Assembly: GCA_043760135.1 (NCBI GenBank)
Contig: JAYUPL010000007.1
Coordinates: 64,106 to 128,105 of the forward strand
Length of the DNA: 64,000 bases
DNA from: Candidatus Parcubacteria bacterium
Lineage (GTDB): Bacteria > Patescibacteriota > Minisyncoccia > Phycocordibacterales > CAIZLB01
Direction: 5' to 3'
The notes beneath the pieces were generated by a model. That model saw nothing but the letters and a program-made list of their open reading frames with translations, was not told where the DNA came from and ran no database searches. The position numbers were made by a program, and so were the translations under genes. Of the stretch, positions 21,996-40,688 are shown piece after piece; positions within the stretch are counted from its first letter, which is position 1, and each line of letters begins with the position of its first letter.

Positions 21996-22073
21996 TCATT
22001 CTGTTTCAGTCCTCGACTCTTGTCTAGGACAAAAGGTCTGCGAAGCGCTTTGCCTAGGGTAAAGTGACATTCC
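21996..22073 (+). repeat. Intergenic structured repeat, copy A (shorter copy of the 40593..40688 element, opposite orientation)
   Basis: Shares GTTTCAGTCCTCGAC...GTCTGCGAAGCGCTTTGCC(C)TAGG..AAAGTG.CATTCC with the reverse complement of copy B. Confidence 0.7.
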
Positions 22074-22092
22074 ATAAATAAATGTAAGAGAA

Positions 22093-23847
22093 ATGACCAA
22101 CCTAAATTTTTGTGGTAAAATCAGGGATATGCAAGACGAAAAGAAACAAAACGACATAACCTATTTTGGTGTTACTGATGCCCGTGGAAAACAAGTAAAA
22201 TTCGGTATCAGAAAAGAGGACCGTCTTCGTCATATGTATGCTATTGGTAAAACTGGTATGGGTAAATCAACTTTACTTGAAAATATGGCCATTCAAGACA
22301 TTCAAAATGGTGAAGGAATGGCTTTCCTCGACCCACACGGTAAAACCGCTGAATTGCTCTTAGAATTCGTTCCAGAGCATCGTATAAAGGACGTTATATA
22401 CTTTGCACCTTTTGATCTAGAGCACCCCGTAGCATTGAACGTGCTCGAAGATACAGCACTGGGAGATGAATCATCATCAAGTATTCGATCACAATTTATA
22501 GTGTCAGGTCTGATGTCAACCTTTAAGAAAATTTGGAAAGATCAATGGTCAGCTCGTATGGAGTATATTTTGAACTATACACTTTTAGCTTTATTGGAAA
22601 TTCCAGAAGCGACACTTTTGGACGTTAACCGTATGCTCTCAGATAAGACATTTCGTAAAGACGTGATTGATCGACTGAAAGAGCCAACTGTAAAAGCCTA
22701 TTGGGAAAAAGAATTTGCATCGATGACCGACAAGATGGTAGCCGAAGCTGTACCAGCTATTCAAAACAAAGTAGGACAATTTATTTCAAATGCTTTGATT
22801 AGAAATATTATAGGTCAAACAAAATCCTCATTCGATTTTAGACAAGCGATGGATGAGAAAAAAATAATTATTTTTAATCTTTCTATTGGACGTATAGGAG
22901 AAGATGCAGTAAACCTATTGGGATCTCTCTTTGTTACAAAAATATACCTTGCAGCCATGAGTCGTGCTGATATGACTGATAGAGAAATGAAGGACGTTCC
23001 AAACTTCTACTTGTACGTGGATGAGTTCCAAAATTTTATCAATGATTCATTTGCTCAGATTTTGTCTCAAGCTCGTAAGTACAAACTCGGACTTATTGTT
23101 GCGCACCAATATGTAAAGCAAATGTCTGAAATAGTTCATGATGCTATCTTTGGAAACGTCGGGACAATGATTGCGTATCGTATTGGTGCTGACGATGCCG
23201 ATGCATTTGAAAAAGAATTTAAACCAACTTTTTTACCTGAAGATTTTACAAACATTGGTCGTTTTCAAATGTATCTTAAACTTATGATTGATGGAGTAAC
23301 TTCGCCAGCTTTTTCTGCAACGGGTATGGGTCCATGGCCAGAACCAGAGCAAAGTTTTGTGAAAGAGATTATTGAATCATCACGTGCTCTTTATTCACAT
23401 CCAAGAAAAGATGTAGAGGCTCATATTTTAAAGTGGACATTGGGTGGAGATAGGGGCGGTAAAGCTGAGGGTTCTCAACCTAAACCAACAATAGATCAAC
23501 CAAGAAGAATGGAACAACCTCGAACTGAGCCAAGACGTGATGAAAGGCCACGAGAAATAAGTCGCGATCAAAATCGAGAGCCTCGAAGGGAACCTGTTCG
23601 AAATGAAATACGAAATGATAGACCAAGAACAGAATCAAGACCTCCTATGGATCGTCCTGTGCCATTGCATAACCCATTCAAAGTAGCTTTTAAAGAGATA
23701 GAAAAAGTTGATGAACCTGTTAAACAAAAAGAACCTGAAATCATTGATGTGACAAAAGTTCCAGAAATAACATTTGAACCAAAACTTGTAGAAAGAAAAG
23801 AGGTTGATGAGGATACTCTTAAAGACGTTTTAGGTTTGAAGGAGTAA
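22093..23847 (+). CDS. VirD4/TraG/TraD-like type IV coupling-protein ATPase (soluble) with R/E/P-rich low-complexity C-terminal tail
   Basis: Walker A GKTGMGKST; FLDPHG (DPKG-like); YVDEFQNF Walker B; tail RRDERPREISRDQNREPRREP. Confidence 0.5.
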   Translation: MTNLNFCGKIRDMQDEKKQNDITYFGVTDARGKQVKFGIRKEDRLRHMYAIGKTGMGKSTLLENMAIQDIQNGEGMAFLDPHGKTAELLLEFVPEHRIKDVIYFAPFDLEHPVALNVLEDTALGDESSSSIRSQFIVSGLMSTFKKIWKDQWSARMEYILNYTLLALLEIPEATLLDVNRMLSDKTFRKDVIDRLKEPTVKAYWEKEFASMTDKMVAEAVPAIQNKVGQFISNALIRNIIGQTKSSFDFRQAMDEKKIIIFNLSIGRIGEDAVNLLGSLFVTKIYLAAMSRADMTDREMKDVPNFYLYVDEFQNFINDSFAQILSQARKYKLGLIVAHQYVKQMSEIVHDAIFGNVGTMIAYRIGADDADAFEKEFKPTFLPEDFTNIGRFQMYLKLMIDGVTSPAFSATGMGPWPEPEQSFVKEIIESSRALYSHPRKDVEAHILKWTLGGDRGGKAEGSQPKPTIDQPRRMEQPRTEPRRDERPREISRDQNREPRREPVRNEIRNDRPRTESRPPMDRPVPLHNPFKVAFKEIEKVDEPVKQKEPEIIDVTKVPEITFEPKLVERKEVDEDTLKDVLGLKE

Positions 23848-24877
23848 TTTTGTCAAGAGTTTTGTCAAGAATTATTTTTCCACGACGCTCAAATAGCTTG
23901 TGCACAAGATAGGATAGACCAAGTATAAAAATAATCATGGCTGGAAATGATACATATAAAGGTATATTTTTTATACCTGCATAGGTAAATAATATTTTTC
24001 CAATTTGATGATGAAGAAGATATACGGGGTATGTTAAAAGTCCTAGTGTGTTTATATATGTATTATTTGGAATTTTGAATTTATTTAAAGAAATTAACAA
24101 AAAGATGATATAGAAAGATAAGAAATAAAGTGTAATAGTTGTTGGGTTAAATGGTACTCCATAACCTTCACTTAGATATGGGATTCTCCTTAAGGTGAAA
24201 ATAAGAGATGCAATAAGTGTGTTACACAATGCAAATATTCTCCAATTTGTTAAACCTTCTTTATAGACTTTATAAAATATGACTCCAGCGATAAAGTTTG
24301 GAATCCAAACTATTTCAGAGTCGACCACAATCGGGAAGATCAACATTAAAACTGATAAGATGATTGCCATAACTTCAATGTCTTTAAATTTTTTAAAGAG
24401 GAGTGATAAGAAAATAACAAAATAAAATTTCATCTCAACAGTCAGTGTCCAATATGTTCCATCAAGTGGATCAATATTGAAAAAATATGGAAGCATGGTC
24501 ATGCTGGCCCAAAATCGAGGCCATGACATATATGAAGATATTAAATGTCCGCCAAACAATAAAAACAAAGTGGTAATGAGAGCACAAACCCAAAATACAG
24601 GATATAGTCGCCCAACTCTAGATTTGAAAAACCCATAGGCATTTCTACCTTCGGCAGACAGGGAAATGACAAAACCTGAAATGATAAAAAATAAATCTAC
24701 TCCTAAGTATCCATACTGAAATAACTGTCGTAATACTGGGATATCTATATAAGGTATTTCCTTATAATAAAATGAGAATGCATAATGATATACAACCACA
24801 AAAGCCGCTGCAATAAAACGTAATGTGTTTATTGCACCAATCTTTTTAGTGTTTGAGGATTGTGATTCTAATGTCAT
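23819..24877 (-). CDS. Acyltransferase family 3 (OafA/OatA-like) integral membrane O-acyltransferase
   Basis: LRFIAAAFVVVYH...GYLGVDLFFIISGF; about 10 TM helices. Confidence 0.75.
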   Translation of the reverse strand: MTLESQSSNTKKIGAINTLRFIAAAFVVVYHYAFSFYYKEIPYIDIPVLRQLFQYGYLGVDLFFIISGFVISLSAEGRNAYGFFKSRVGRLYPVFWVCALITTLFLLFGGHLISSYMSWPRFWASMTMLPYFFNIDPLDGTYWTLTVEMKFYFVIFLSLLFKKFKDIEVMAIILSVLMLIFPIVVDSEIVWIPNFIAGVIFYKVYKEGLTNWRIFALCNTLIASLIFTLRRIPYLSEGYGVPFNPTTITLYFLSFYIIFLLISLNKFKIPNNTYINTLGLLTYPVYLLHHQIGKILFTYAGIKNIPLYVSFPAMIIFILGLSYLVHKLFERRGKIILDKTLDKITPSNLKRL

Positions 24878-24878
24878 A

Positions 24879-25655
24879 TTATAATTGTACCCAAGTTTTT
24901 GGTAGGATTTCAAGTCTATCAGACGACTCCGTATTAGTCCATTGTTTTGGGGCTATAACTATTTTATGAGGATTCTTGTTGAGATATGCAGCCCACCAAG
25001 AAAATGTTGAGTTGGCAATAATATTATGTGAACACTGACTCATCAACATAAGTTCTTCAGCTTCAGATATGTCCCCATTTGAAACGAAAGTCTCAGCACC
25101 TATCTGTATATTTTTTTTTGCCCATTCGATGTCGTCTGAAAATATAAAAAAATGAGGAGTGTTGAGTTGCGATTTAATATGATGCAAGGCTTTGTAATAA
25201 TACTCTAGATCACATAGTCCGTGGTGACTGTTGTTTACATAATCACCACGACGTATATGAATTGAGACAGAATCAGTTTGTATATTTTTAGCCACTTCTT
25301 GTGCAGCCTGACTTAGGGGATTTTTTAAAGTAAATTCTTTTAGGACTTGATTTTTGATGTCGATAAAATATTTTTCACTTTGATAATAGCTGTAGTTTCT
25401 AGTTATTTTTTGCACAACTTTTTTGAAAATTTTTATAAGCGGATTTACGGGTATTTGTTTAAAATTTTCAGATAAACTAATGTTGAACTTATCTAGAAGG
25501 AAAGGGCGGTGGATATCTTTTCTGGTATTGTTAAAAAATGATGTATCAAATATAATGTGCTTTTTATCAATCAGGGATAATTTTAATCCATATGCATATT
25601 GAAAAAGTTGGTTACCGAGACCGCCTTTGATTGTGATTATTTTTGTTTGTGTCAT
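24879..25655 (-). CDS. GT11 alpha-1,2-fucosyltransferase
   Basis: GGLGNQLFQYA; HIRRGDY; ANSTFSWWAAYL. Confidence 0.85.
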   Translation of the reverse strand: MTQTKIITIKGGLGNQLFQYAYGLKLSLIDKKHIIFDTSFFNNTRKDIHRPFLLDKFNISLSENFKQIPVNPLIKIFKKVVQKITRNYSYYQSEKYFIDIKNQVLKEFTLKNPLSQAAQEVAKNIQTDSVSIHIRRGDYVNNSHHGLCDLEYYYKALHHIKSQLNTPHFFIFSDDIEWAKKNIQIGAETFVSNGDISEAEELMLMSQCSHNIIANSTFSWWAAYLNKNPHKIVIAPKQWTNTESSDRLEILPKTWVQL

Positions 25656-26411
25656 TTATTTTAGTATACTCCTTAGTTTGTCTATGGTTTTGGCGAGTAT
25701 GTATCCATTATACGATTTTTTATATTTTTCTATAATAAGTGCCTGAGTATCTTTCCCTACTTTTATTTTCATGGCATTGCTCTGACTATTATGTTTTCTG
25801 TAGGCAGTTGTGTATTGGTGTAGATTGGCGAACTTATATTTCAGGCCTATTTTAAGCCACAGGTCATAATCTTCCCAGATAGCAAGTCCAACATCATACC
25901 CACCCAAGTTTAATATATCTTCTTTACGATACAATACGCTTGAGTGGCAAAATAGATTTTTCATCAATAGAAGATTCTTAATTATAAAGTTACTTGAAGG
26001 GTATTTTACTTTTTTGATGGTGTGACCTTGTTCATCGACAATAATCATATTTGATCCTATAAGGGTGTGATCTTTGTGCAGGTCCAAGAACTCGTTTTGA
26101 AGAGAAAGTTTGTTGGTATCAATCCAATAATCGTCACTATCGAGCACTGCAACATATTCACCGGTCGACAGAGAAAGACCTTTGTTTCGATTTTTGGTTA
26201 TCCCTAAATTTTCAGAATTTTTAATGTATCTAATTCGAGAGTCTGTGTATGAAGAAATTATCTCCTCTGTATTATCAGTTGAACAATCGTCTACTATAAT
26301 CAATTCCCAATCTTGAAAAGTTTGAAAAAGAACAGAGTCGATGGCTTGTTTTATAAAATGTGCTCGGTTGTACGTACACATTTGTATGCTTATTTTTGGA
26401 GTGTGTGTCAT
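25656..26411 (-). CDS. Glycosyltransferase family 2
   Basis: ISIQMCTYNRAHFIKQAIDSVLFQTFQDWELIIVDDCSTDNT; LDSDD. Confidence 0.8.
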   Translation of the reverse strand: MTHTPKISIQMCTYNRAHFIKQAIDSVLFQTFQDWELIIVDDCSTDNTEEIISSYTDSRIRYIKNSENLGITKNRNKGLSLSTGEYVAVLDSDDYWIDTNKLSLQNEFLDLHKDHTLIGSNMIIVDEQGHTIKKVKYPSSNFIIKNLLLMKNLFCHSSVLYRKEDILNLGGYDVGLAIWEDYDLWLKIGLKYKFANLHQYTTAYRKHNSQSNAMKIKVGKDTQALIIEKYKKSYNGYILAKTIDKLRSILK

Positions 26412-26427
26412 GTGAATTTATTTTAAT

Positions 26428-27156
26428 CTATTTTTTAATAAACCAAAAACATCCACAGCCGTATGTTTCATTTTTTACGAGGGCAGGATTGGCATTCGCT
26501 ATAATTCCGCCTTTTTCTCCAGACTCTGGGATAAGAGAAAATTCTTTTAATTCAAATCCATCAAAGTAGGAAATAATCTGCTCATATGAATAGATGCGGT
26601 GGGCGTTGAACTCAATTTTTGGTTTTCCTACCGGTGTTACGAACAAAAGGTTACCTCCAAGTTGAACTACTCTTTTAAGCTCGTCTATGGCTTTGATATC
26701 ACCTTCAGCATCTATTGGGTCGCCATACCTACCAAGTCCAATATGCTCGATCGTATGCATGCAAGAAATTGACAGAACACTATTATTATCAAATGGGAGA
26801 GAGTGAAGGTTTCCTTCAAGGCTTCGTAGTCCACTTAATTTAAGGTCGGCTGGTCTGTAGTCATAAAAATCCACATCAGTAAAAGCTGAGACGATTCCAC
26901 AGAAATATAAACTCGATGAGATATCAATGTGCTTGATCGGATTTATCTCTTTTACTTTTCGGGCGGCCCATGAAGTGTGATAGACATAATGTCGATCAAA
27001 TCCAGTCTTAATAGTCTTATCTTTTACTTGGGGATAAAAGTCTTTGAAGCTCAGGGAAAAACGATCTGATTTTGCGGCTTTTTTGAAGGCGAAATAATCC
27101 TTCAAGACAAAAGGAGAGAGAATTATTCTGATTGCTTTTTTAATGATTTTTTTCAT
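26428..27156 (-). CDS. SAM-dependent methyltransferase-like protein (DUF268-like)
   Basis: DISCMHTIEHIGLGRYGDPID...LKRVVQLGGNLLF. Confidence 0.45.
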   Translation of the reverse strand: MKKIIKKAIRIILSPFVLKDYFAFKKAAKSDRFSLSFKDFYPQVKDKTIKTGFDRHYVYHTSWAARKVKEINPIKHIDISSSLYFCGIVSAFTDVDFYDYRPADLKLSGLRSLEGNLHSLPFDNNSVLSISCMHTIEHIGLGRYGDPIDAEGDIKAIDELKRVVQLGGNLLFVTPVGKPKIEFNAHRIYSYEQIISYFDGFELKEFSLIPESGEKGGIIANANPALVKNETYGCGCFWFIKK

Positions 27157-27773
27157 TATAAAATATGAATTATGTCTTTGTCGGTAAATACCTTAAGTTT
27201 GAGATTTTTTGATTGCACAAACTCTACCAAATCTTTCATGTGAGGATAATTATCTGTTCCATTAAAAAGTCGAGCATCATCAATCAGTACAACACTCTCA
27301 TCAACCCAATGATTTAAGACAATTTCCAACTCTTTTGATATAGGTGTATGTCCAAAATCTGCACTAGCCTCTGTTATACCTGCTGAATAGTGCGCATCAA
27401 GCCAAAATAATTTTTTAGAAGTGTTGTTTTGCACTATTTTTTCAATCAATAGTCCACTATCTCCTTGAAGGATTTCGACCTGCTTTTTATTTTTAAAATA
27501 TTTTTTAGCTTCATTAGCCAAAGTCTCACTCAATTCGATTGAATAAAGTTTTTTAAAATATTTCTTAACGTAATTTGTCGTAACTCCCAAATAGGTTCCG
27601 GTTTCAATAAAAGTGTCTATGTTGAATAGTTCCTTGGCTGCCAGTATCTTTTCGATTTTATTAATATGAAAAAGCTTGTCTTTGTGTACCGATCGTTTTA
27701 TTTTTTGTATTAAAAATTCTGACTTGATGACAGCTATGTTTCTTTTAATATTGCGTTTTATGTTTTGTATCAT
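27156..27773 (-). CDS. Putative class I SAM-dependent (sugar O-)methyltransferase
   Basis: FIETGTYLGVTT...WLDAHY...VVLIDDA pattern (TylF/CmcI-like). Confidence 0.4.
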   Translation of the reverse strand: MIQNIKRNIKRNIAVIKSEFLIQKIKRSVHKDKLFHINKIEKILAAKELFNIDTFIETGTYLGVTTNYVKKYFKKLYSIELSETLANEAKKYFKNKKQVEILQGDSGLLIEKIVQNNTSKKLFWLDAHYSAGITEASADFGHTPISKELEIVLNHWVDESVVLIDDARLFNGTDNYPHMKDLVEFVQSKNLKLKVFTDKDIIHIL

Positions 27774-28678
27774 TGTTGTGTATTAATTATTTCTAAATAG
27801 TTTTGCACCGAAACTTTGTCTGACAAATTTTCTATACAATACTTTCTGGGATTATAAGCTGAGGCGTTATTCAAAATTGAATCCAGTTGTACATCCAAGG
27901 TCTCTGCGGTGAAGAATCTTCCTGAATCATTTGTTTGATATGGCGCCGCGATCTTTTCGTTAGACCATGCGTATGTGTCATATTGCCAGTCCTTATTTTG
28001 CCAAACCAGCGTTGGGATATTGTATGCCCAAGCCTCTTGAAGGGCTAAGCCTTGACTCTCTGTTTTTTGAAGATAAATTAATACAGATGCGGATAATAGC
28101 TTTTGAAGATAATCCTTTCTAGCATATGTACCATAGGTTATTATATCATATTGTATCTTTTTATCATCTAGCTTTTTAAGGACTTTTTGGTATATTTCTT
28201 CAGGGACATTTTTTTTAAATACTAGGACTTTTTCCCGACTTGAAGTTTCTTCAGGAATTTGAACGCCCGCTGGCCATATTTTTATCTTGTCATTCAGGCT
28301 TGGCTCTAGGTTGATAAACCAGTCTTTGGTCCATTTTGATGGGAAGAGAAGAATGTCTATGTTTTTATCCTGGATGAGGTTTTTGTAATCATATGGGGTT
28401 TGAACGGTTGATGGTCCAACTATCAATTTCTTTATTTTTCCTGCAGATTTTTTATGGACCATCTCCTTTAATATTTCTATACCTGAGAGGACATGAATGG
28501 TGTCATATTTTGGCTTAACCGGATTCACTTCAAATTGGATGTTCAATTCACTCAGTCCTCGAACCAAACTATCCAATACGGCATCAGGTCCAGAATATTT
28601 TCCCAGCATTTTTTTGATAGAATATTTCCAGAATTCTTTTTTGAATATGTTATTTGTTCTTGTGTAGATGGATATCAT
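27770..28678 (-). CDS. Putative glycosyltransferase (GT-B-like C-terminal half)
   Basis: ESQGLALQEAWAYNIPTL resembles the GT1/GT4 E-X7-E region. Confidence 0.4.
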   Translation of the reverse strand: MISIYTRTNNIFKKEFWKYSIKKMLGKYSGPDAVLDSLVRGLSELNIQFEVNPVKPKYDTIHVLSGIEILKEMVHKKSAGKIKKLIVGPSTVQTPYDYKNLIQDKNIDILLFPSKWTKDWFINLEPSLNDKIKIWPAGVQIPEETSSREKVLVFKKNVPEEIYQKVLKKLDDKKIQYDIITYGTYARKDYLQKLLSASVLIYLQKTESQGLALQEAWAYNIPTLVWQNKDWQYDTYAWSNEKIAAPYQTNDSGRFFTAETLDVQLDSILNNASAYNPRKYCIENLSDKVSVQNYLEIINTQQ

Positions 28679-28679
28679 A

Positions 28680-29909
28680 TTACTTTACGGATTCATTGAT
28701 TATGTTTTCATACTTATTGATTATATTTTCAATCAAAAATAATTTCTCACCTTTTTCTTTGGCTTTTTGTCCCATTTCTTTTAACTTTCCTGATTTATGA
28801 AATTCTATAAACTCAATCATGTTTTTTGCGTATTGTTCATAATCACCTTTTTCGGAATATCGACTAAATGAGTCATCAAGGTATTCGAGGTGTGCATTCC
28901 AGATATGTGACTTGTGGGTTAGGATTGGATTTCCAACGAGCATTGATTCCGCAATGTTTAAGCCGAATGATTCACCATCTCTTCTGAAATGAGCCAGTAC
29001 ATCGACAGCTTGGTGAAATACCCAGACATCTTCTTCGAGATAGCTTGGTTCAAGCCAATGCACATTTGGTATCTTGCGTTCGATAACTAGCTTTTTGGCT
29101 GCATCAGCAGGGGACATGATGAGATAATGAATATCCGGATTTGTTTTTATGACAATCTCAAAGGCCAATAGTCCAATAGAATCAAAGATGGAGTCATCCG
29201 CTCTGCCGATTCGCCCAAAGACTAAGTCTGTATCTATGATATTAAATCTTTCTCGCAATGCCTGTGCTTTTTCTGGATTTAAGATAGGTCGCTCAGAAGG
29301 AATATATTGAACAGTAAGTCTATCTTCGCTAACTACTCTTTTTGCTAATTTTTTAACTTCTTCTGATATACAGATGTGTTTTACAATATTATCCTGTACT
29401 GTAAATGAACCAAAAATATTTATAAGAATTATTGGAATATTTCTTATATTGATAAGTGGGTAAATTGTTTGTCCGGGAGTTGCGGTTATTATGCAATGTA
29501 TTTTATTATCATTGATAATATTTTCCATCTGTGGATTCATGTCATTGACTATGTATGGCCAGTTTGGTACAACGGAGGCATATGTAAAAGGAATAATCTT
29601 TACATTTGTATGTTGAAGGTAGGCAAGTCGGCTTTTCTCATTTTCCGTTGCATGCATAATAAAAACATTATATTTAGTTGGATCTAGATATTTAGCAATC
29701 ATTTGCAGATTCTTTTCAGTGCCTCCAAAGCTGAGTGCAGTTTTGTGATAGATTAATACATTTGTCTTACTATTTGAACCTTTTTTATTTTGAAATATTC
29801 TATCGTTTTTGTTTGTTTCAGTAAATCTTACATAGAAAAAAGCTGATAATTCAATCGTCTTTATGATTAAATGTCTTACAGGATTTGGTAATATGTAAAA
29901 AAATTTCTT
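28680..29909 (-). CDS. Glycosyltransferase family 4-like
   Basis: GESFGLNIAESMLVGNPIL (EX7E); start set at MKKFFYIL. Confidence 0.55.
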   Translation of the reverse strand, partial: KKFFYILPNPVRHLIIKTIELSAFFYVRFTETNKNDRIFQNKKGSNSKTNVLIYHKTALSFGGTEKNLQMIAKYLDPTKYNVFIMHATENEKSRLAYLQHTNVKIIPFTYASVVPNWPYIVNDMNPQMENIINDNKIHCIITATPGQTIYPLINIRNIPIILINIFGSFTVQDNIVKHICISEEVKKLAKRVVSEDRLTVQYIPSERPILNPEKAQALRERFNIIDTDLVFGRIGRADDSIFDSIGLLAFEIVIKTNPDIHYLIMSPADAAKKLVIERKIPNVHWLEPSYLEEDVWVFHQAVDVLAHFRRDGESFGLNIAESMLVGNPILTHKSHIWNAHLEYLDDSFSRYSEKGDYEQYAKNMIEFIEFHKSGKLKEMGQKAKEKGEKLFLIENIINKYENIINESVK

Positions 29910-29913
29910 CATT

Positions 29914-30774: not shown

Positions 30775-31512
30775 TTATTTTAATTTATTCTTTACAAATC
30801 TAATCACCCTGTTTGTTTTATTTTTCAAGCCGTCCAGTATCCACAGTGTTTTTTCTTTTGTAGTGGGTGTAAAATAGTTTATTTTTGAACCTGCTTTAAC
30901 TTTTCTACCAAAGACACCACTTTGATAACCTGTATTTTCGAGGCTAAAAAACTCCAATTGCCAGTCAGGTAAATTTTTGGCCCACCAGTTTTTACTTCTG
31001 ATATGCCACATGCTTTGCTGAATGTTTCTATCATATCTTTCGTCAAAAAAGAGTGCTGATCCTTCAGGTAGGATATTTACCTCCTTTAAAAAATCCTTTA
31101 CATAAAAATCCTTGATGTGTGACAAAACAGTTGAGGTAGTAATGAAAGCTGGTTCGTTGAGTTTTAACATTTTCATTCCATCAACCATATCCATGTTTAC
31201 AAACTCAAGATTTGAGAAATTTCCCCGTTCGGTGATAATTTGCTTATTTATTTCGATTATTTCTTTCACAGGCTCTATTCCAATAACTCTTTTAAATAGG
31301 GGTGATGTCTTGTGCATGAGCCATGCAGAACCGCACCCGATGTCTACGTGCGTGTGAATATTATTGAGCATACTTATTGCTTTTTCAAAGCCTAGTTTTT
31401 CGAACATCTTACCATCTTCCTGCTTTTTTAAAATATTTTGCACGTATTCGGGCGTATGTAGTTTCAAATAGTCTTGTTCATGTTCTTTAAAGCTTTGCAA
31501 ATCTTTCTTCAT
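30775..31512 (-). CDS. Class I SAM-dependent methyltransferase
   Basis: Motif I VDIGCGSAWL. Confidence 0.65.
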   Translation of the reverse strand: MKKDLQSFKEHEQDYLKLHTPEYVQNILKKQEDGKMFEKLGFEKAISMLNNIHTHVDIGCGSAWLMHKTSPLFKRVIGIEPVKEIIEINKQIITERGNFSNLEFVNMDMVDGMKMLKLNEPAFITTSTVLSHIKDFYVKDFLKEVNILPEGSALFFDERYDRNIQQSMWHIRSKNWWAKNLPDWQLEFFSLENTGYQSGVFGRKVKAGSKINYFTPTTKEKTLWILDGLKNKTNRVIRFVKNKLK

Positions 31513-31516
31513 GTTT

Positions 31517-32422: not shown

Positions 32423-33352
32423 TTATTTAATAAGTAATTTTTTAATATATGTTTTAAGTACATATATTAATTTATTATATCCAGTTGTTGATTTGAGTAA
32501 GGTTTTAAAGATACTTTTGTGTATTTCGTTTTCAGTGTTTTGAATAATAAGTACATAGTTGGGTACGAATTTTTTAACAGGGAAGGATTCATTAAAGAAA
32601 GTTATGTATGGGATCGAATATTCTACAGTTCGTGGCAAGAAGGTTAGGTCTATTTTATCAAAAATTCCGTACCGCAACTCGATAACTGTTCGTTCTGCAG
32701 GTTGCTTTGAGTTTGGTCTCGTACTGGCTCCTTTGCCTTCGTTTAAGTAATATCCTAAAAGTTCTTTGGCAATTGCTACTTTTCCGTTATATGCCAGTCT
32801 GATAGAGAGGTCAAAATCTGCTCCTGATTTTAATTGTTCATCAAAGTATCCAGCTTTTTCACATAGACTTTTCTTAAACATAAGAAAAGGACCAAAGACC
32901 ATTGATCTCTTGTATTCCTCCGGGTCAATATTTCCATGTTTAACAACTGAACCTTCAGTGGCTCCAAATTTTCTTACAATAGTGTAATCGCCAATAGCAA
33001 TATCAGCATCATTTCCGATAATCGCATTTACTTGGGATTCGATTGAGTTAGGTGTTCGTAAATCATCAACATTCCAGATAGTAACCAGCTCTCCTGAAGC
33101 CTCTTTGATACATCTATTCATCGATGTTCCAATAGGATCAACTTTTTCAATAATAATGTGTTTTATTTTATTTGGGTATTTTGCATCAAATTCTTTCACC
33201 CAGTTTATCTCTTCCTGATCAGGCTCATTATGGTCAAGAACCACTTCTAAATTATCAAAATACGTTTGCTGAGGTAACTCATCAAGGAATTTTTTTAAAT
33301 ATGGCTTCATTCTGAAGCATGGAGTGATGGTGCTGACTTTTAGTTTTGACAT
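32423..33352 (-). CDS. Glycosyltransferase family 2
   Basis: VSTITPCFRMKPYLKKFLDEL.QQTY..LEVVLDHNEPD; NVDD. Confidence 0.65.
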   Translation of the reverse strand: MSKLKVSTITPCFRMKPYLKKFLDELPQQTYFDNLEVVLDHNEPDQEEINWVKEFDAKYPNKIKHIIIEKVDPIGTSMNRCIKEASGELVTIWNVDDLRTPNSIESQVNAIIGNDADIAIGDYTIVRKFGATEGSVVKHGNIDPEEYKRSMVFGPFLMFKKSLCEKAGYFDEQLKSGADFDLSIRLAYNGKVAIAKELLGYYLNEGKGASTRPNSKQPAERTVIELRYGIFDKIDLTFLPRTVEYSIPYITFFNESFPVKKFVPNYVLIIQNTENEIHKSIFKTLLKSTTGYNKLIYVLKTYIKKLLIK

Positions 33353-33360
33353 TATAGGTA

Positions 33361-34161
33361 TTATAGATTTTTATGTTTTTTCATATCTTCTACCATTTTT
33401 GCAAGGCCTTTTTGTAAATCTACTCTCGGAGACCATCCTGGAATCTTTCCTTTGATAGGTGTGTCAGGGGTTGATCCCAGTTTTTCACCTGGAATAACTT
33501 TTGCGCCGGTGAGTTCTGCAATGATATTGGCCAAATCTATTACCCTAACCCACTCAAAACTGGTAACATCGTGAATTCCTTTAAGGTTATCTTCCATGGC
33601 TTTGTACCAAGCTTCGGTTACGTCATCAATATGTATAAAATGTCTTTTTTCCTCGCCAGAAGTCAACATACGGATCTCCCCGGTAGTCAGAGCTTGTGAT
33701 ACAAAGTCGGAAACAACGTGACTTCTGATTGATTCTTCTTCGATTGGACCATATACGTTCCACTGTCTAATAAATACACCTCCTAAAAGGCGTGTCCACA
33801 CCTCTCCAAGTCTTTTTGTAACACCATATACGGTGTCATATTCTTCGGCAAGTTGAGATGAAATAAAGAGAAATGGTTTCTTGCTTTTTTCCAATTGCCC
33901 CATTACGTTGTGTAATAGCTTTAAGTTTCCGCTTAGTTGACCCAATTGCAGGTCTTGGTGATATAAAAACTTGGCACCACCAACGTCCCAGGCCAAGAAA
34001 TAAACTCTATCTATTTCGTCAAAATTTATTTGTGCAATTCGAGCATCTTCGTGCTCACCGTTTTTTATATCAAATACAACAACTTCCTCACCTTTAGATT
34101 TTAAGAAGTGTACAAAAGGTTTTCCTATAAAGCCTTCTCCTCCAATTACTAGATTTCTCAT
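33361..34161 (-). CDS. NAD-dependent epimerase/dehydratase (SDR)
   Basis: GGEGFIG Rossmann motif; YGVTK catalytic YxxxK. Confidence 0.85.
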   Translation of the reverse strand: MRNLVIGGEGFIGKPFVHFLKSKGEEVVVFDIKNGEHEDARIAQINFDEIDRVYFLAWDVGGAKFLYHQDLQLGQLSGNLKLLHNVMGQLEKSKKPFLFISSQLAEEYDTVYGVTKRLGEVWTRLLGGVFIRQWNVYGPIEEESIRSHVVSDFVSQALTTGEIRMLTSGEEKRHFIHIDDVTEAWYKAMEDNLKGIHDVTSFEWVRVIDLANIIAELTGAKVIPGEKLGSTPDTPIKGKIPGWSPRVDLQKGLAKMVEDMKKHKNL

Positions 34162-34258
34162 GATATAGATATATAATTTTAGTTAGTTAATTTGATAAAT
34201 TTTACCACACTATTTGGTTTTAAGAAAATTGTTTAATTATGCGTTTTATTGGATATTA

Positions 34259-35554
34259 TTATGACCGAATCATTGCTATGATCCTGTTTCGAGGTACTTT
34301 AAACAGCATTACACTCAATGGTCCAAGAGTGTAAGAGGTGAGGGTGGCGAATGCTGAGCCGTTTATTCCATATTCAGGTATGAGTAGGATGTTTAATACA
34401 ACATTCAACACCATCCCAATTATTGACATATATAGAATAATAGAAGAAAGCTTTTCTGCTACTAAATACTGCATAATAACCATTCCAAGACTTATACCTA
34501 CTCCTGACCATATATAGAGTTGTAATACTTGGTATCCCGCAATAAAATTTACACCGAAGACTAAGTGTAAAATTGGTTTGGCATAAATACTTCCAATTAT
34601 TGCAATAATCGAAGAAGTTAGAATTAAAAAACCTGTTAATTTTAAAACTCTTTTTGTATAGATATATGTGTCAGTCATTTGAGCATTCAATATAGAAGGA
34701 AATAAAGTTGATACAATAATTGCCGGTATAAAATACCAAGCTTCAGATAACGTAACTGCTGCACTATATAAGCCAACAGCCTCGGCATTTATGTAGTTTT
34801 TGAGTAAAACTTGATCAACTCTGGAGTATATGAGGATAAAAATACTTGAAAACATAAGTGGTAACGATGCTTTTATTATTTCCTTGGCGATGGATAGTTT
34901 AAAATTCCATTTTTTTAATTTTCCATAAAATTTAGAATAATATATCAGAAAAAAAGTTCCATATAATAGTGGTTCTATTATTAAAACAAAGCCTAAAAAT
35001 AGGACCCCTTTATTCATGAACACGATGCTAAGTTTTAATAATGCTAAAATTATGCTCACTGATATTGTTATAAGTGAAAGTTTTTTGTTTTCAAGTCGTG
35101 CCTGAAAGGTATAAGTGATAACACTGAAAGCTTGAAAAATATATGAAATTGAGATAATGAATATTAATTTTCCTTCTAAGGGGTTTGTGGTAAAAAATAA
35201 TGAAACTAAAAAAGTTGTAACCAAAGCTAAAAAACCACCACTCATTTTCAATATAAAAGAAGTTCCAAGAATATCAGCCTCTTTCTCTGGATTCTTAATG
35301 ATCTCTCTGTATAAGATTTGGTCTATACCCAAAGTTGCAATAAAAGAAAATAATCCGACAAAGCTAATTGCATAGCTCAGCGTTCCGTATTTTTCAGGTC
35401 CTAGGTATCGGGCGACTATGGCTATTACAAAAAAGGATATACCCAAGCTTATTACTCGAGAAAAGAAAAGCCATCCAATGTTTTGGAAATACTTCTGGAA
35501 GCCTGCATGCTCCCATTTTTCTGTGAGGTATTTTTTTAAATCAACTATTTTCAT
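34259..35554 (-). CDS. Wzx-type oligosaccharide flippase (MOP superfamily polysaccharide biosynthesis protein)
   Basis: About 12-14 TM helices; typical Wzx/PST organisation; start set at MKIVDLKK. Confidence 0.8.
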   Translation of the reverse strand: MKIVDLKKYLTEKWEHAGFQKYFQNIGWLFFSRVISLGISFFVIAIVARYLGPEKYGTLSYAISFVGLFSFIATLGIDQILYREIIKNPEKEADILGTSFILKMSGGFLALVTTFLVSLFFTTNPLEGKLIFIISISYIFQAFSVITYTFQARLENKKLSLITISVSIILALLKLSIVFMNKGVLFLGFVLIIEPLLYGTFFLIYYSKFYGKLKKWNFKLSIAKEIIKASLPLMFSSIFILIYSRVDQVLLKNYINAEAVGLYSAAVTLSEAWYFIPAIIVSTLFPSILNAQMTDTYIYTKRVLKLTGFLILTSSIIAIIGSIYAKPILHLVFGVNFIAGYQVLQLYIWSGVGISLGMVIMQYLVAEKLSSIILYMSIIGMVLNVVLNILLIPEYGINGSAFATLTSYTLGPLSVMLFKVPRNRIIAMIRS

Positions 35555-35590
35555 ATAACTTTCTTTAAAATACATGTTATAATACTCCGC

Positions 35591-37744
35591 ATGAATACAC
35601 AAATACAAGACATTAAAAAAGCTCTAAGATTCATTACTATTATATTGATCGGAGCGACATTATTAACCCCTTTTATCTTCTCCGGCGAATTATTCTTTCC
35701 ATATATCACGAGCAAAGCATTTTTTATGAGATTGATGATCGTATTGTCTACAGTATCTTATATAGGTTTGGCATTAATTGATAAAAATTCACGTCCTAAA
35801 AAATCAGCCATGCTCTATGCAATGGGTGCTTTTATGGTCGTACTTCTGTTGGCAACATTAAATAGTGTGAATCCTACACGAAGTCTCTGGTCAAATTTTG
35901 AAAGAATGGAAGGTTTGGTAACTATGTTATATATGGCTGCATTATTTGTTATGTCTGCCTCAACACTCAGAAAGAAAGAGTGGACGCATATGATGCATTT
36001 TTCTCTCCTGATATCCGTTGTTACAGGTTTGCATGCGTTGGGTGATGCGAGTCCTCGTATATCTGGTCACCTCGGTAACTCTTCGTATCTTGGGGTGTAT
36101 GCTTTAATGCATGTATTTTTTGGCCTATTGGGTGCCGCGATGGTATTTAGAGGTAATAGAGAAAGGGAATTATTAGAATCAGGCGAACATAAGGCTGCCC
36201 ATAGATTAACAACAAATAATTACATGTCTATCGCACTATATATAGCGTTAGCTGTATTTAACCTATTTATCTTATTTAAAACAGGAACAAGAGGAGCTTT
36301 TGTTGGACTGGTTGTTGGTTTGATATTGTCGTCTATCTATTTGGTCTGGAAAGAGAAGAATAAGATCATCCGCTTCGGGGCTATGGGTTTTTTGATTGCT
36401 GTTGTGATGTCTGTTTCTTTTTTAGGTATTTTTAAGCATTCATCTTTCGTTGAGAATAATGTCTTGCTGTCTCGTTTTGCAGCTTTGGTTACAACAGACT
36501 ATAAAGCAGTATTGAACAACCAAGGTGAAAGTCGTACAATGATCTGGAAAATGGCATTTGAAGGGGTGAAAGAAAGACCTCTACTTGGTTGGGGGCAAGA
36601 TAATTTTGGGTATGTGTTTGCAAAATACTATAACCCTCACATGTATGCACAAGAGCAGTGGTTTGATAGATCTCACAATGTGTTTATGGATTGGTTGATT
36701 GCTGCGGGTATATTAGGTCTCGCAGGATACTTGTCTCTGTTTGTTATCGCACTGTATTTTATATTTTCTAAAAAATCTAAATTTACCATTATTGAAAAAT
36801 CAATATGGCTTGGATTGCTAGCATCATATTTTATACATAATATATTCGTATTTGATAACCTTTCAAGTTATGTACTATTCTTCCTGATATTGGGTTATAT
36901 AAATGATAGGTATACACACGATAGGAATGAAAAGGTAGATAGATCTTTATCTGAAAATGAAATGAATAAAATTATTCTTATAAGTATAATTTCACTTGGA
37001 GCGTTGTCTTATATTTCTTATCACACAATCTTAAGACCATATTCTCAAAATATTGCCTTGATAGAAGTTCTGAGAAATACACAAACTGTGGGAGTTTCTA
37101 AAACTATTGATAAAGATTTTGAAAATGTTTTACAAAAAGGTCCGACTGGAAAGTTTGAAATATTTGAACAAATATCAACTGCATTCCCAAAGATTGCAAA
37201 TGAACCTACACTATCTACTACAACGAAACAAAATCTATTTAATGTGTATAGAAAAATTGTTGCTGAATATGATAAAGAAATAAGTAATGATGCTCGATAT
37301 AATTATTTTGTATCTAATACATATAAAACTATCGGTATGAACGATCAAGCGTTGGTGTATATAAATAAGGCATATGATTTATCACCAACAAAGCAAACCT
37401 TCGCATACAGTAAAGCTATTTTATTGATAGATACAGGTGATATAAATGGTGCCATAGCGTTGCTAAAAAAAGCATATGAAGATGCACCAGAGAATATTAC
37501 TGCTTACGGATATTATGTTGGGACACTTTCTGAATTGGCGAAGAAGAATAATTATGCTTCAGCCGACATGGATAAGATCGCACAAGTATTAGCTGAAGGG
37601 TATACTAAAAATGGTTATGACTTAATTATTAAAAAAGAATTCTGGGATTTATTTACAAATCAAAAAGTAAAAACTGTGTTAGTAAATAAAATTTCCGAGT
37701 TAGTACCAGAATTAAAGTTAGGAATTATGAACGCATCGAGATAA
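35591..37744 (+). CDS. O-antigen ligase/polymerase (Wzy_C) family membrane protein fused to a C-terminal TPR-like domain
   Basis: Multi-TM N-terminal half with RSHNVFMDWLIAAGILG (Wzy_C-like); C-terminal about 250 aa soluble repeat region. Confidence 0.7.
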   Translation: MNTQIQDIKKALRFITIILIGATLLTPFIFSGELFFPYITSKAFFMRLMIVLSTVSYIGLALIDKNSRPKKSAMLYAMGAFMVVLLLATLNSVNPTRSLWSNFERMEGLVTMLYMAALFVMSASTLRKKEWTHMMHFSLLISVVTGLHALGDASPRISGHLGNSSYLGVYALMHVFFGLLGAAMVFRGNRERELLESGEHKAAHRLTTNNYMSIALYIALAVFNLFILFKTGTRGAFVGLVVGLILSSIYLVWKEKNKIIRFGAMGFLIAVVMSVSFLGIFKHSSFVENNVLLSRFAALVTTDYKAVLNNQGESRTMIWKMAFEGVKERPLLGWGQDNFGYVFAKYYNPHMYAQEQWFDRSHNVFMDWLIAAGILGLAGYLSLFVIALYFIFSKKSKFTIIEKSIWLGLLASYFIHNIFVFDNLSSYVLFFLILGYINDRYTHDRNEKVDRSLSENEMNKIILISIISLGALSYISYHTILRPYSQNIALIEVLRNTQTVGVSKTIDKDFENVLQKGPTGKFEIFEQISTAFPKIANEPTLSTTTKQNLFNVYRKIVAEYDKEISNDARYNYFVSNTYKTIGMNDQALVYINKAYDLSPTKQTFAYSKAILLIDTGDINGAIALLKKAYEDAPENITAYGYYVGTLSELAKKNNYASADMDKIAQVLAEGYTKNGYDLIIKKEFWDLFTNQKVKTVLVNKISELVPELKLGIMNASR

Positions 37745-37756
37745 AAACCTTTGATA

Positions 37757-37792
37757 AAAAAATCCCATTCAAGGAAAGAATGGGATTTTTTC
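37757..37792 (+). terminator. Rho-independent terminator (ATCCCATTC-aaggaaa-GAATGGGAT followed by TTTTTTC)
   Basis: Hairpin plus T-run after the ligase-like gene. Confidence 0.65.
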
Positions 37793-37952
37793 TATCTCAG
37801 GTTTAGAAGAGGTAATCATACAGATAAAGGTTCTTTTCAAACTTTGAAATACAAATTTTAATTTTTTTAAAAATATTTTCACAAAGAAAAAAATAAAAAT
37901 AAAAAAAATATTTAAAAAATAATTATCCACAAAATATTTTCATAAAAAATGT

Positions 37953-37982
37953 TTGCATTGTAAAAAATAATTAGTGTATAAT
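37953..37982 (+). promoter_or_regulatory. Sigma-70-like promoter TTGCAT-18 nt-TATAAT in an AT-rich tract
   Basis: Near-consensus hexamers about 85 nt upstream of the small KA-rich ORF. Confidence 0.45.
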
Positions 37983-38069
37983 AAAGACACGTGAGAAGAA
38001 AATGTTTGTCGAACATAAAGCTTCACACGCGATAATCATTTCTAAATAATTTTTAAATAAAATAAATAT

Positions 38070-38204
38070 ATGGCAGTAAAAAAAGCAGCAAAAAAAGTTG
38101 TAAAAAAAGCAGTTAAAAAAGCAGCTCCTAAAAAAGTTGTAAAAAAAGCAGCTCCTAAAAAAGCAGTTAAAAAAACTGTAAAAAAAACAGCAAAAAAAAG
38201 ATAG
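38070..38204 (+). CDS. Small (44 aa) Lys/Ala-rich histone H1/Hc1-like basic protein; not in the ORF track
   Basis: MAVKKAAKKVVKKAVKKAAPKKVVKKAAPKKAVKKTVKKTAKKR; promoter upstream, strong terminator downstream. Confidence 0.5.
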   Translation: MAVKKAAKKVVKKAVKKAAPKKVVKKAAPKKAVKKTVKKTAKKR

Positions 38205-38223
38205 TTCACTCTATCCCACAAAC

Positions 38224-38266
38224 AAAAGTACGTAAGATGTAAAAATCCTACGTACTTTTGTTTTAC
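38224..38266 (+). terminator. Rho-independent terminator (AAAAGTACGTA...TACGTACTTTT followed by GTTTT)
   Basis: 8-11 bp stem plus T-run. Confidence 0.6.
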
Positions 38267-38302
38267 TTACTGTTTTTAACGTTTTGTGATATAAATATAC
38301 AC

Positions 38303-40579
38303 ATGTCATTTTTAAATTTATTAGGTTCTCCTATAAAAAAATATCAAAAAAAGGTTGCTATTATTAACGATTTAGAGGCTTCTGTTTCTGCCTTGACTTC
38401 CACAGAATTAAAAGAAAAATCATTAACCTTAAAATCTGTTTTAATCGGCGCTGATAAAACAAAACTGGATGAGAATCTTCCTGAGGCTTTTGCACTCGTT
38501 CGTGAGTCAGCAAAAAGAACTCTAAATCAGCGTCACTATGATGTACAACTTATTGGTGGAATGATCTTACACGATAACAATGTTGCAGAAATGAAAACCG
38601 GTGAAGGAAAAACACAGATGGCAACATTACCAACCTATCTGAATGCACTTGTTGGGAAAGGTGTGCACGTAGTAACGGTGAACGATTATCTTTCAGGGCG
38701 TGATGCGGTATGGATGGGGCAAATATATTATGCACTTGGTTTATCAACTGCTGTAATCATGCAAGACAAATCTTTTATCTATGATCCAACACATACAACA
38801 AAGGAAGACGATAAAGGTGTGGATGAGACAGGTTCATTCAAAGTTGAATATGAATTCTTGAGACCAGTCACACGAAAAGAAGCATACGAGGCTGATATTA
38901 CATATGGAACAAATTCAGTGTTTGGTTTTGACTATCTGTTTGACAACATTGCTAACTCAAAAGAAGAATTAAGACAACGAGGACATTATTTTGCAATTAT
39001 CGATGAGGCTGACTCTATTCTTATAGATGAATCACGAAGTCCTTTGATTGTATCTCAACCAGCTGAAGAGTCGGATGATGTCTACAAGACATTCGCAGCC
39101 ATTGTTCGTGATTTTAAAAGAGATGAGCATTATATATATGATGAGAAGTTTAAATCAATTCAAGTTACAGATGCAGGTATTGATTTGGCTGAGAAAAAAC
39201 TAAATATAACTGATTTATATAATAATGAAAATATTAAACTTGTTCACCATCTAGAGACAGCTATTAAAGCCAAAGCGGTTTATCATAAAGAGGTTGATTA
39301 TCTTATTAAAGAAGGGGAGGTTCTTATTGTTGATACTTCAACAGGAAGAGTTCAGCCAGGTAGACGTTGGTCAGATGGTATTCATCAAGCTATTGAGGCT
39401 AAAGAAGGGGTTAAGATTCAAAGAGAAAGTAAGACTGCTGCGTCTATTACATATCAAAACTTGTTTAGATTGTATGAAAGACTTTCAGGTATGACAGGAA
39501 CAGGTATGACTTCTCGCGAAGAGTTTATTAAAGTATACGGTTTGGATGTGGTTGCTGTACCAACTCATAAACCAGTTACTCGTGTTGATAAAGATGATCT
39601 TATTTTCATGACCGAACTTGGAAAATTTAAAGCCATCGCAAAAAAGATAAAAGAGTTAAATCAAAAAGGACAACCTGTGCTTGTTGGTACAATTTCTATT
39701 GAGAAAAATGAATTATTGTCACAATATTTAAAAATTGCTGGCGTTAAGCATAATCTATTGAATGCTAAACCTGAACTTGCAGAACGTGAAGGAGAGACTA
39801 TTGCACAAGCAGGAAAAAAGGGTGCGGTAACTATTGCAACTAACATGGCGGGTCGTGGAGTTGATATTAAACTTGGAGGTATTCCTTGTACACCAGAAGA
39901 AAATCAAGAAATAAAAGATCTTGGTGGTTTATATGTGATTGGAACAGAGAGACATGATTCACGACGTGTTGATAATCAGCTACGTGGCCGCTCAGGACGT
40001 CAAGGAGACGCCGGTGAGACGCAGTTCTATGTATCACTTGAAGATGAACTTATGCGTGTGTTTGCAAACAATGCAATCAAAGGTTTGATGGCTCGTATGC
40101 AATTACCAGAAGATGAGGCGATACAACACAAACTTGTTTCAAGATCATTAGAGTCTGCACAAAAGAAAATCGAAGGCTTTCATTTTGATTCAAGAAAAAG
40201 AGTGTTGGAGTTTGATGATGTATTAAATCAACAAAGACAAAACATTTATTCTAGAAGAAGAGCTATCTTGCTTGCTGAGGGTGAGGAGTTAAAAAACTTG
40301 GTTGATGATATGTTGGTAAACCTTGAAATTCCTGAACATAAAAAGACAGATGATTTCTATAAAATCTGCAAACAAGTCTTGCTTCAAATCAATGATTATT
40401 ACTGGATGAATCACCTTGATAATATGGGTCATCTACAAACTTCCGTAAACTTCAGAGCGATCGGACAACATGATCCAATCGTAGAGTATAAGAGGGAAGG
40501 GTTAATTGCCTTTAAACAGCTTAACGAAAAGATAAAGTCTGATTTTGTTGGTAATGCTTCAAGGTTGGCATCTTCATAG
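38303..40579 (+). CDS. secA: Preprotein translocase ATPase SecA (short form without C-terminal zinc-binding tail)
   Basis: LIGGMILHDNNVAEMKTGEGKTQMATLP...; DEAD-like motifs; start set at MSFLNLL. Confidence 0.9.
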   Translation: MSFLNLLGSPIKKYQKKVAIINDLEASVSALTSTELKEKSLTLKSVLIGADKTKLDENLPEAFALVRESAKRTLNQRHYDVQLIGGMILHDNNVAEMKTGEGKTQMATLPTYLNALVGKGVHVVTVNDYLSGRDAVWMGQIYYALGLSTAVIMQDKSFIYDPTHTTKEDDKGVDETGSFKVEYEFLRPVTRKEAYEADITYGTNSVFGFDYLFDNIANSKEELRQRGHYFAIIDEADSILIDESRSPLIVSQPAEESDDVYKTFAAIVRDFKRDEHYIYDEKFKSIQVTDAGIDLAEKKLNITDLYNNENIKLVHHLETAIKAKAVYHKEVDYLIKEGEVLIVDTSTGRVQPGRRWSDGIHQAIEAKEGVKIQRESKTAASITYQNLFRLYERLSGMTGTGMTSREEFIKVYGLDVVAVPTHKPVTRVDKDDLIFMTELGKFKAIAKKIKELNQKGQPVLVGTISIEKNELLSQYLKIAGVKHNLLNAKPELAEREGETIAQAGKKGAVTIATNMAGRGVDIKLGGIPCTPEENQEIKDLGGLYVIGTERHDSRRVDNQLRGRSGRQGDAGETQFYVSLEDELMRVFANNAIKGLMARMQLPEDEAIQHKLVSRSLESAQKKIEGFHFDSRKRVLEFDDVLNQQRQNIYSRRRAILLAEGEELKNLVDDMLVNLEIPEHKKTDDFYKICKQVLLQINDYYWMNHLDNMGHLQTSVNFRAIGQHDPIVEYKREGLIAFKQLNEKIKSDFVGNASRLASS

Positions 40580-40592
40580 CAAACTTATTTAC

Positions 40593-40688
40593 GGAATGAC
40601 ACTTTGCCCTAGGCAAAGCGCTTCGCAGACCCGCCTACCCTGAGGGTAGGTGTTCCTAGAAAATGGGTCGAGGACTGAAACGGAATGG
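40593..40688 (-). repeat. Intergenic structured repeat, copy B (contains the perfect hairpin CCTACCC-tga-GGGTAGG absent from copy A)
   Basis: Reverse complement matches 21996..22073; bracketed by the inverted 11-mers CAAACTTATTT / AAATAAGTTTG. Confidence 0.7.

Follow-up and report, generated by a model that had tools for sequence, protein, structure and literature searches.

Among the small non-coding repeats of bacteria, two described families come close to the element reported here. The bcr1 repeats of the Bacillus cereus group fold into a closing stem followed by two stem-loops, a 'cruciform-like' structure kept by base-pair compensatory changes, and they are co-transcribed with their neighbours, their distribution not being conserved among close relatives (PMC3184786). 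REPINs also show compensatory change in their hairpins and an alternative 'clover' fold of two small hairpins, and the proposal is that an HUH enzyme (RAYT/IS200-like) encoded elsewhere mobilises them as folded single-stranded DNA (PMC3116915). In this context, a structured repeat was studied that occurs twice, as copies A and B, in a stretch of 64,000 nucleotides (nt) of contig JAYUPL010000007.1 (positions 64,106 to 128,105; assembly GCA_043760135.1, Candidatus Parcubacteria bacterium), hereafter called the window. The two copies are probably separate insertions of a previously undescribed, non-coding and non-autonomous interspersed repeat of Patescibacteria, of about 105 nt, which is defined by its fold more than by its sequence and whose closest behavioural analogues are bcr1 and the REPINs.

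Copies, fold and covariation

The first-pass annotation of the window had reported two reverse-complement copies of one element, at 21996-22073 on the plus strand and 40593-40688 on the minus strand, both intergenic and just behind a stop codon. Reading and aligning the two sites bears this out, the distance being 0 nt from the TAA at 21979-21981 for copy A and from the TAG at 40577-40579 for copy B. The size given was too small, since both copies end in closing helices, that of copy A having been overlooked, and the full units measure 105 nt (A) and 123 nt (B). The inverted 11-mers seen to bracket copy B are real and belong to its 13-bp closing helix, here called P1, and its extra perfect hairpin CCTACCCtcaGGGTAGG, at 40634-40650, is equally genuine and unique in the window. 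The parts of the two copies are the following, in window positions:

21982..22086, plus strand: copy A, full element, 105 nt, 107.7 bits with the covariance model, between the S11 stop codon and the promoter of the T4CP-like gene
21982..21994, plus strand: copy A, 5' arm of P1, TAAATTTATTTAT, pairing with 22074-22086
21995..22014, plus strand: copy A, junction strand TTCATTCT, then the invariant GTTTCAGTCCTC
22015..22038, plus strand: copy A, hairpin 1, GACTCTTGTC-TAG-GACAAAAGGTC
22039..22045, plus strand: copy A, invariant linker TGCGAAG
22046..22066, plus strand: copy A, hairpin 2, CGCTTTGCC-TAG-GGTAAAGTG
22067..22086, plus strand: copy A, junction strand ACATTCC, then the 3' arm of P1, ATAAATAAATGTA
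40580..40702, minus strand: copy B, full element, 123 nt, 98.8 bits with the covariance model, between the secA TAG (40577-40579) and the -35 box TTGATA at 40704
40690..40702, minus strand: copy B, 5' arm of P1, CAAACTTATTTGC, pairing with 40580-40592 (GTAAATAAGTTTG)
40628..40669, minus strand: copy B, remodelled hairpin 1, with outer helix GACCC/GGGTC, a short TTC-TAG-GAA hairpin and the inserted perfect hairpin
40634..40650, minus strand: the extra hairpin CCTACCC-TCA-GGGTAGG, in copy B only
40600..40620, minus strand: copy B, hairpin 2, CGCTTTGCC-TAG-GGCAAAGTG

Two blocks match exactly, once on each strand, namely the 15-nt GTTTCAGTCCTCGAC (22003-22017, plus; 40667-40681, minus) and the 25-nt GGTCTGCGAAGCGCTTTGCCTAGGG (22035-22059, plus; 40607-40631, minus). 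With three mismatches allowed, the first block has four matches and the second two, counts that no shuffle equalled, and elsewhere in the window such matches are at chance level. Overall, the copies are about 80% identical, their longest exact run being 25 nt; as both were found without a pattern, it is worth recording that GTTTCAGTCCTC, the CTAGG of hairpin 1 and TGCGAAGC are 100% identical between them and the remainder about 60-80%.

Beyond the window, a scan of 185,579 species-representative genomes gave two true copies, L006 and L008, both in the metagenome-assembled genome Loc080925-6m_bin-0369 (CAIZLB01), the remaining five matches being due to chance and four of these lying in G+C-rich genomes. 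Two further copies, L010 and L011, came from a scan of JGI metagenomes with a pattern fixing the linkers and loop only. With these four the element is not unique to the window pair, and the total rises to six copies of 104-123 nt, at six unrelated loci in at least four genomes or metagenomes. The neighbours are housekeeping genes (S11 peptidase/T4CP, secA, DEAD helicase, iPGM, HAD hydrolase and thyA-folA) with no function in common, and the carrier loci share no genes with the window. Searches with nhmmer and a six-copy covariance model over about 278 kb (the window and related loci) returned the known copies and no degenerate ones, IMG/VR, PLSDB and phage collections gave chance matches only, and a Logan contig reaching 1.6 kb past the left window edge holds no copy. 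No family of Rfam 15 matches the element at the gathering threshold, and permissive scans of A, B and L006 also yielded nothing, the best matches (E = 0.16-1.3, far below threshold) falling to unrelated families. A full-text literature search for the element sequence, or for reports of such repeats (miniature inverted-repeat transposable elements, MITEs, or repetitive extragenic palindromic sequences, REPs) in Patescibacteria, retrieved nothing relevant. Two Logan contigs coding for an identical SecA break off within the hairpin-2 block (window positions 40622 and 40626), which suggests that the k=31 assembly graph branches there and that those samples hold another copy sharing at least 30 nt with B; copy A, which shares only 25 nt, falls short of this.

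All six copies follow one plan, in which P1 encloses two consecutive hairpins, making three helices in all. P1 is AT-rich and 12-14 bp long, with arms of consensus AAATTTATTTAY ... RTAAATAAATTT that are complementary in every copy. Its 5' arm is followed by an 8-nt junction strand YYCAYTCY and GTTTCAGTCCTC, by hairpin 1 of about 11 bp with C-TAG-G at its top, by the linker TGCGAAG, by hairpin 2 (CRCTTTGYC-TAG-GRCAAAGTG), and by a 7-nt strand WCAYTMC before the 3' arm. Both hairpins carry a UAG triloop (C-UAG-G) on the same strand, the junction strands are near-invariant, and in every copy the core has YCAYTCC on both sides, as a direct repeat.

The folding and covariance analysis strongly supports this three-helix structure. 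As drawn by hand for the six copies, it has standard pairs in 94.9% of paired cells, and 15 of its 34 pairs have changed on both sides (10 of 14 in P1, 4 of 11 in hairpin 1, 1 of 9 in hairpin 2), compared with 5.6±1.7 in shuffles, none of 500 reaching 15, and 1-4 in slid controls. RNAalifold independently gives the same fold and adds a helix GUUUCAGU/GCGAAGC with two G.U pairs, which is untestable by covariation because it is invariant. The linker also contains d(GCGAAGC), a DNA mini-hairpin of notable stability. In copy B, hairpin 1 is partly replaced by a branched version bearing the whole of the extra hairpin, a tolerance typical of structure-constrained elements. Since the P1 arms vary freely but stay paired, they are unlikely to be recognised as double-stranded DNA sequence; what counts is most likely the element folded as a single strand. 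The GTTTCAG strand lies on the C-rich strand, judged by GC skew, in five of the six copies, a bias that is not significant.

Several other identities were considered and rejected. By inspection, a conserved small open reading frame (ORF) is ruled out on either strand, the frames shifting between copies through a 1-nt indel in hairpin 1. Hammerhead core motifs were sought by eye on both strands without a match, and no small-ribozyme family appeared in the Rfam scans. No intrinsic terminator is predicted in copies A and B, and the ordinary terminators of this genome look different.

Insertion sites and gene order

Relative to syntenic relatives, the extra DNA at sites A and B is an insertion. 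Site A is empty in L001 (spacer of 20 bp between the S11 and T4CP genes, T4CP 85% identical) and in L002 (46 bp, 79%), while site B is empty in L014, L015 and L019-L024, the SecA of which is 91-93% identical. The spacer between SecA and the 80-aa gene measures 21-36 bp in L014, L015 and L020-L024, and in L019 the gene called downstream directly adjoins the SecA stop; at both sites, gene content and gene order in these element-free relatives are as in the window. When site B is set against L015, the downstream promoter aligns base for base and the extra DNA has its exact limits at CAAACTTATTT and AAATAAGTTTG; the P1 arms, which bound it, are thus part of the inserted unit. No target-site duplication is visible, as none of the six copies has a direct repeat outside the arms and the comparison of empty and filled site B leaves an ambiguity of at most 1 nt. 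The terminal nucleotides vary between copies (T..A, C..G, A..T), and the 5' flanks of the six differ (ATAA, CAAT, TAAA, AGAA, ATGA, ATAA).

As regards placement, five copies lie 0-1 nt from a stop codon or supply that stop themselves (L010), the sixth lies 15 nt away, and all six precede the start or promoter of the next gene, three being sense and three antisense to the upstream gene. Selection is the simplest explanation for the position behind stop codons, the slot beside the stop being the only harmless one because the spacers of the relatives (20-46 bp) are filled by the next promoter. The idea that the P1 arms were a pre-existing palindromic target was discarded, given the absence of solo hairpins from the window and the loci checked and the empty sites without arms, and so was that of a shared transposase encoded by the 511-aa ORFs beside L006 and L008, which are unrelated and encode a DEAD helicase and iPGM.

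The first-pass annotation had also proposed that the pair might be a recombination substrate able to flip the 18.6-kb segment between A and B (T4CP, glycan cluster and secA). The copies are indeed inverted and 18.5 kb apart, and one Logan contig breaks inside copy B. Nevertheless, relatives without the element show the very same junctions, S11|T4CP|acyltransferase(-) and flippase(-)|Wzy|SecA|80-aa gene, which makes the present orientation the ancestral one, and an independent Logan contig of the same organism is collinear from about 14334 through copy A to copy B. Moreover, the two copies share no exact run longer than 25 nt and are about 80% identical overall, the other copies are single and sit at unrelated loci of other genomes, and no recombinase gene was found nearby in a Pfam scan that covered about 25 of the window ORFs. 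With only the ancestral orientation seen, the case does not fit site-specific inversion, which is very improbable here, and the location of A and B around the segment is best read as the coincidence of two independent insertions. For annotation, this means that the 18.6-kb interval is neither a bounded island nor an invertible segment.

Neighbouring genes and other repeats

The window comes from a genome of Patescibacteria/Paceibacterota type with about 35% G+C, and G+C is flat over the interval between A and B. Copy A follows the TAA of a Peptidase_S11 (D-Ala-D-Ala carboxypeptidase) gene and precedes the promoter of the T4CP-like ATPase gene, while copy B has the TAG of secA on one side and, on the other, the promoter-like site of the 80-aa gene, itself followed by tRNA-Phe. 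Between them lie genes for an acyltransferase, about ten glycosyl- and methyl-transferases, a flippase and a Wzy-like ligase, and the Pfam scan confirms the earlier description of the interval as T4CP-like ATPase, glycan cluster and SecA. Two promoter-like sites, both outside the element, give the context of the copies:

22093..22121, plus strand: promoter-like site of the T4CP-like gene, TG-extended -10, TAAAAT, downstream of copy A, with counterparts in L001/L002
40704..40732, plus strand: promoter-like site of the 80-aa gene, TTGATA-17-TACTAT, beginning 1 nt past copy B and conserved in L015

For the T4CP-like ORF (22093-22131), the mechanical start is probably too far upstream; the likeliest start is the ATG at 22131, as in L001, which lies downstream of the TG-extended -10 box at 22111-22121. 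The same probably holds for secA (38258-38303), public records calling SecA as 758 aa with a start at about 38303. Directly upstream of secA, a small ORF (38066-38194) encodes a Lys/Ala-rich repeat (AKKAAKKVVKK…) resembling a histone-H1-like DNA-binding protein, and relatives also have small ORFs at this position. On the other side of copy B, the slot between the 80-aa ORF/tRNA-Phe and HSP20 holds a different gene in every relative compared (window 41291-41659, 122 aa; L014 12709-13863, 384 aa; L015 3407-4867, 486 aa; L020 5897-6196, 99 aa), being a variable slot beside a tRNA gene. Two PemK/MazF-type toxin genes occur within 64 kb of a very small genome (458-850 and 18412-18774), the second at a position conserved in L001 and L017. 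Finally, a 932-aa ORF (1888-4686) with internal repeats of about 120 nt (at least seven copies, 60-70% identical) fits a beta-propeller-type repeat surface protein.

Other repeats were also noticed. A second, unrelated structured repeat of about 110 nt, laid out as …GAGCTCCGAGG…CTCCTCGGTTCGGAAAT-hairpin-ATTTCGCTCAC… and without an Rfam match, occurs at window positions 47590-47700 (plus) and 50957-51062 (minus) and in L015 at 4987-5076 and 10994-11054. Its inverted window copies flank the SBP and T4SS-pilin genes, its internal hairpin covaries (GAAATACATATG/CATATGTATTTC versus GAAATGAAAGTG/CACGTTCATTTC) and, unlike the main element, it is also found at the syntenic post-gyrA site of a relative. 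A hairpin repeat GYACTTCTG(Y)TTTGAT-AA-ATCAAA(R)CAAGTCGCA, with a covarying stem, has three window copies (4935-4968, minus; 14325-14365, plus; 54826-54866, plus) and one in L015 (3244-3283). Each copy is preceded by (C)ACCA, the first lying 6 nt past the CCA end of tRNA-Leu(CAA), and same-organism Logan contigs begin or end near two of them; this may be a repeat derived from a tRNA 3' flank or an attachment-site-like sequence. Lastly, a promoter-like block of 69 nt, …AAAGCTTTG…CAAAGGTATAATGGTCCTGTAAGGACC…, is found downstream of tRNA-Leu (4785-4853, minus) and of tRNA-Phe (41151-41219, plus), with similar blocks in L020-L022, L015 and L006. The one at 4785-4853 aims into the 3' end of the convergent 932-aa gene and may drive an unannotated small RNA.

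Comparison with known elements and rival explanations

The designation 'MITE/REP-like' given at first is broadly right in terms of dispersal, insertion polymorphism and covarying fold, but the element, lacking both a target-site duplication and conserved termini, falls outside the strict definition of a MITE. It is of MITE size and non-coding (no reading frame persists from copy to copy), all six copies end in inverted repeats, atypical in their unconserved terminal bases, and the copies are dispersed over six loci with presence/absence polymorphism at A and B. It shares with the classical families (Correia/NEMIS, RUP, ERIC) a length of about 100 nt, inverted repeats at the ends, an intergenic location in either orientation, a presence that varies between relatives and the ability to fold into a long structure. 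Unlike in these families, the termini vary and covary, and the core is more conserved than the ends.

The resemblance to bcr1 (a group A repeat) lies in a small non-coding unit with a closing stem, two stem-loops and compensatory change, and in a genomic distribution that is not conserved between close relatives. The two nevertheless have no sequence similarity and belong to different phyla, bcr1 measures about 155 bp with 5-bp flanking direct repeats, and the present element is distinguished by its identical UAG triloops and by junction strands that are its most conserved part. With REPs and REPINs (mobilised by RAYT, or TnpA-REP) it has in common intergenic hairpin repeats whose helices compensate while short motifs stay fixed. 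However, REPINs are inverted REP doublets whereas the hairpins here form a direct doublet, no GTAG-type 5' tetranucleotide stands at the hairpin foot (CCTC and GAAG precede the hairpins), copy number is low (2 per 64 kb), and no RAYT gene was found among the ORFs scanned.

Miniatures derived from IS200/IS605 (PATEs) likewise have two subterminal same-strand hairpins, no target duplication and a single-strand logic. Members of that family have no inverted repeats at their ends and integrate on the 3' side of a fixed tetra- or pentanucleotide, whereas here a terminal helix of 12-14 bp travels with the inserted unit and the outside flanks are not conserved. As in integron attC sites, the fold of one strand defines the element, with a paired outer box, an unpaired central bubble, a variable terminal structure and a location directly behind the stop codon of an ORF. 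The attC reading was rejected since the R-box (RYYYAAC ... GTTRRRY) is absent from the outer arms, save accidentally in copy B; there is no cassette array and no integrase, and the pattern of conservation is reversed, the interior being conserved and the outer box variable. The family is new, the kind of element (MITE/REPIN/bcr1-like) is known, and the ends are unusual.

Taken together, the dispersal, the presence/absence polymorphism, the compensated fold, the conserved loops and junctions, the occurrence in either orientation and the lack of an associated gene argue for a non-autonomous mobile repeat recognised as a folded strand. An enzyme encoded elsewhere would copy it to new sites in trans, recognising a folded single strand that is most likely single-stranded DNA, as for HUH/REP-type elements. 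Recognition would rest on the loops and junction strands (YCAYTCC-GTTTCAGTCCTC, TGCGAAG, WCAYTMC), the helices needing only to pair. In such compact genomes, insertions would survive only where harmless, in the slot that directly follows a stop codon and precedes the next promoter, and the inserted copies would be co-transcribed as a stable structure of the 3' untranslated region in either orientation, presumably neutral or beneficial at their sites. Some observations weigh against this interpretation. Only six copies were recovered, and the invariance of the core (GTTTCAGTCCTC, CTAGG of hairpin 1, TGCGAAGC) is partly a matter of ascertainment, because four of the six were found by patterns demanding parts of it. 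No transposase, recombinase or reverse transcriptase gene adjoins any copy or appears among the roughly 25 window ORFs scanned against Pfam, and no parent insertion sequence with the same ends was found in the window or 29 loci. A classical DDE-transposase mechanism is unlikely, given the lack of target-site duplication and the differing terminal nucleotides, and the 80% identity of A and B speaks against a recent burst. As for the strand concerned, 9 G.T cells are counted against 5 A.C cells, and both strands fold well as DNA. Lastly, the compensatory change could reflect host-level selection for an RNA function.

This last point leads to the main rival, a host-functional cis-acting RNA, in which copies would be kept because a folded 3' end of the upstream mRNA is useful as an exonuclease block, a processing site or a protein-binding site formed by the two CAUUCC strands and UAG loops. 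It would account for compensatory changes and strongly conserved junction strands between two old copies of one genome, for the position of all six in transcribed spacers, for the RNA folding z-scores of the GTTTCAG strand (-2.4 to -2.8) and for the possible extra helix, which forms on that strand only. It is weakened by the 3:3 orientation, since the conserved strand-specific sequences are absent from the mRNA wherever the copy is antisense to the flanking transcription unit, and by the close relatives that do without the element at both sites; the neighbouring genes have no shared role and copies A and B show no terminator-like feature, which leaves this explanation possible but on the unlikely side. 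If each copy were instead an independent gene for a three-way-junction RNA of about 100 nt, the well-supported fold, unlike any Rfam family, and a G+C content of 0.36-0.49 compared with 0.34 around it would be in line. But no promoter comes with the insertion, whose first base is that of the P1 5' arm, an internal promoter could not transcribe both P1 arms although P1 covaries, and around A and B no promoter-like site for the element strand and no terminator after the element were seen, so that such a gene family is quite improbable.

A nested origin has also to be weighed, in which an inner unit of about 72 nt (GTTTCAG...AAAGTG) entered a CATTCC target in the loop of an AT-rich hairpin, duplicating CATTCC, before the composite spread, or in which an IS200/IS605-type unit was cut after CATTCC at both ends. 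The YCAYTCC repeat around the core of every copy and the absence of duplication outside P1 would agree with it. On the other side, no solo AT-rich hairpin with a CATTCC loop exists in the window or the loci checked, P1 arms are absent from the empty sites of relatives, which means that P1 moves along with the element, the complementarity to CATTCC upstream (5') of the hairpin feet is by inspection no longer than 3 nt, and no Y1 transposase was seen; a composite history is thus improbable. A bolder version of the preferred mobile-repeat interpretation, to be regarded as rather doubtful, is that a helix and not a sequence specifies the ends of the mobile element, a folded single strand (a three-way junction with two UAG-capped hairpins and twin CATTCC strands) being excised and reinserted by a structure-specific enzyme, possibly as a retro-mobile RNA, in a manner peculiar to tiny Patescibacteria genomes and with targeted landing at stop codons. 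If true, it would define a class of mobile DNA by structure, and the landing behind stop codons would be targeted rather than selected.

In Patescibacteria (the candidate phyla radiation), mobile DNA and structured non-coding elements have hardly been explored, and the genomes, of about 1 Mb, are thought to hold very little of either. The present family offers a clean fold supported by covariation and a covariance model applicable to every genome of this kind, and it can serve as a natural marker for recent insertions that distinguish closely related populations. The partner enzyme, if found, would show how a repeat without conserved termini or target duplication moves.

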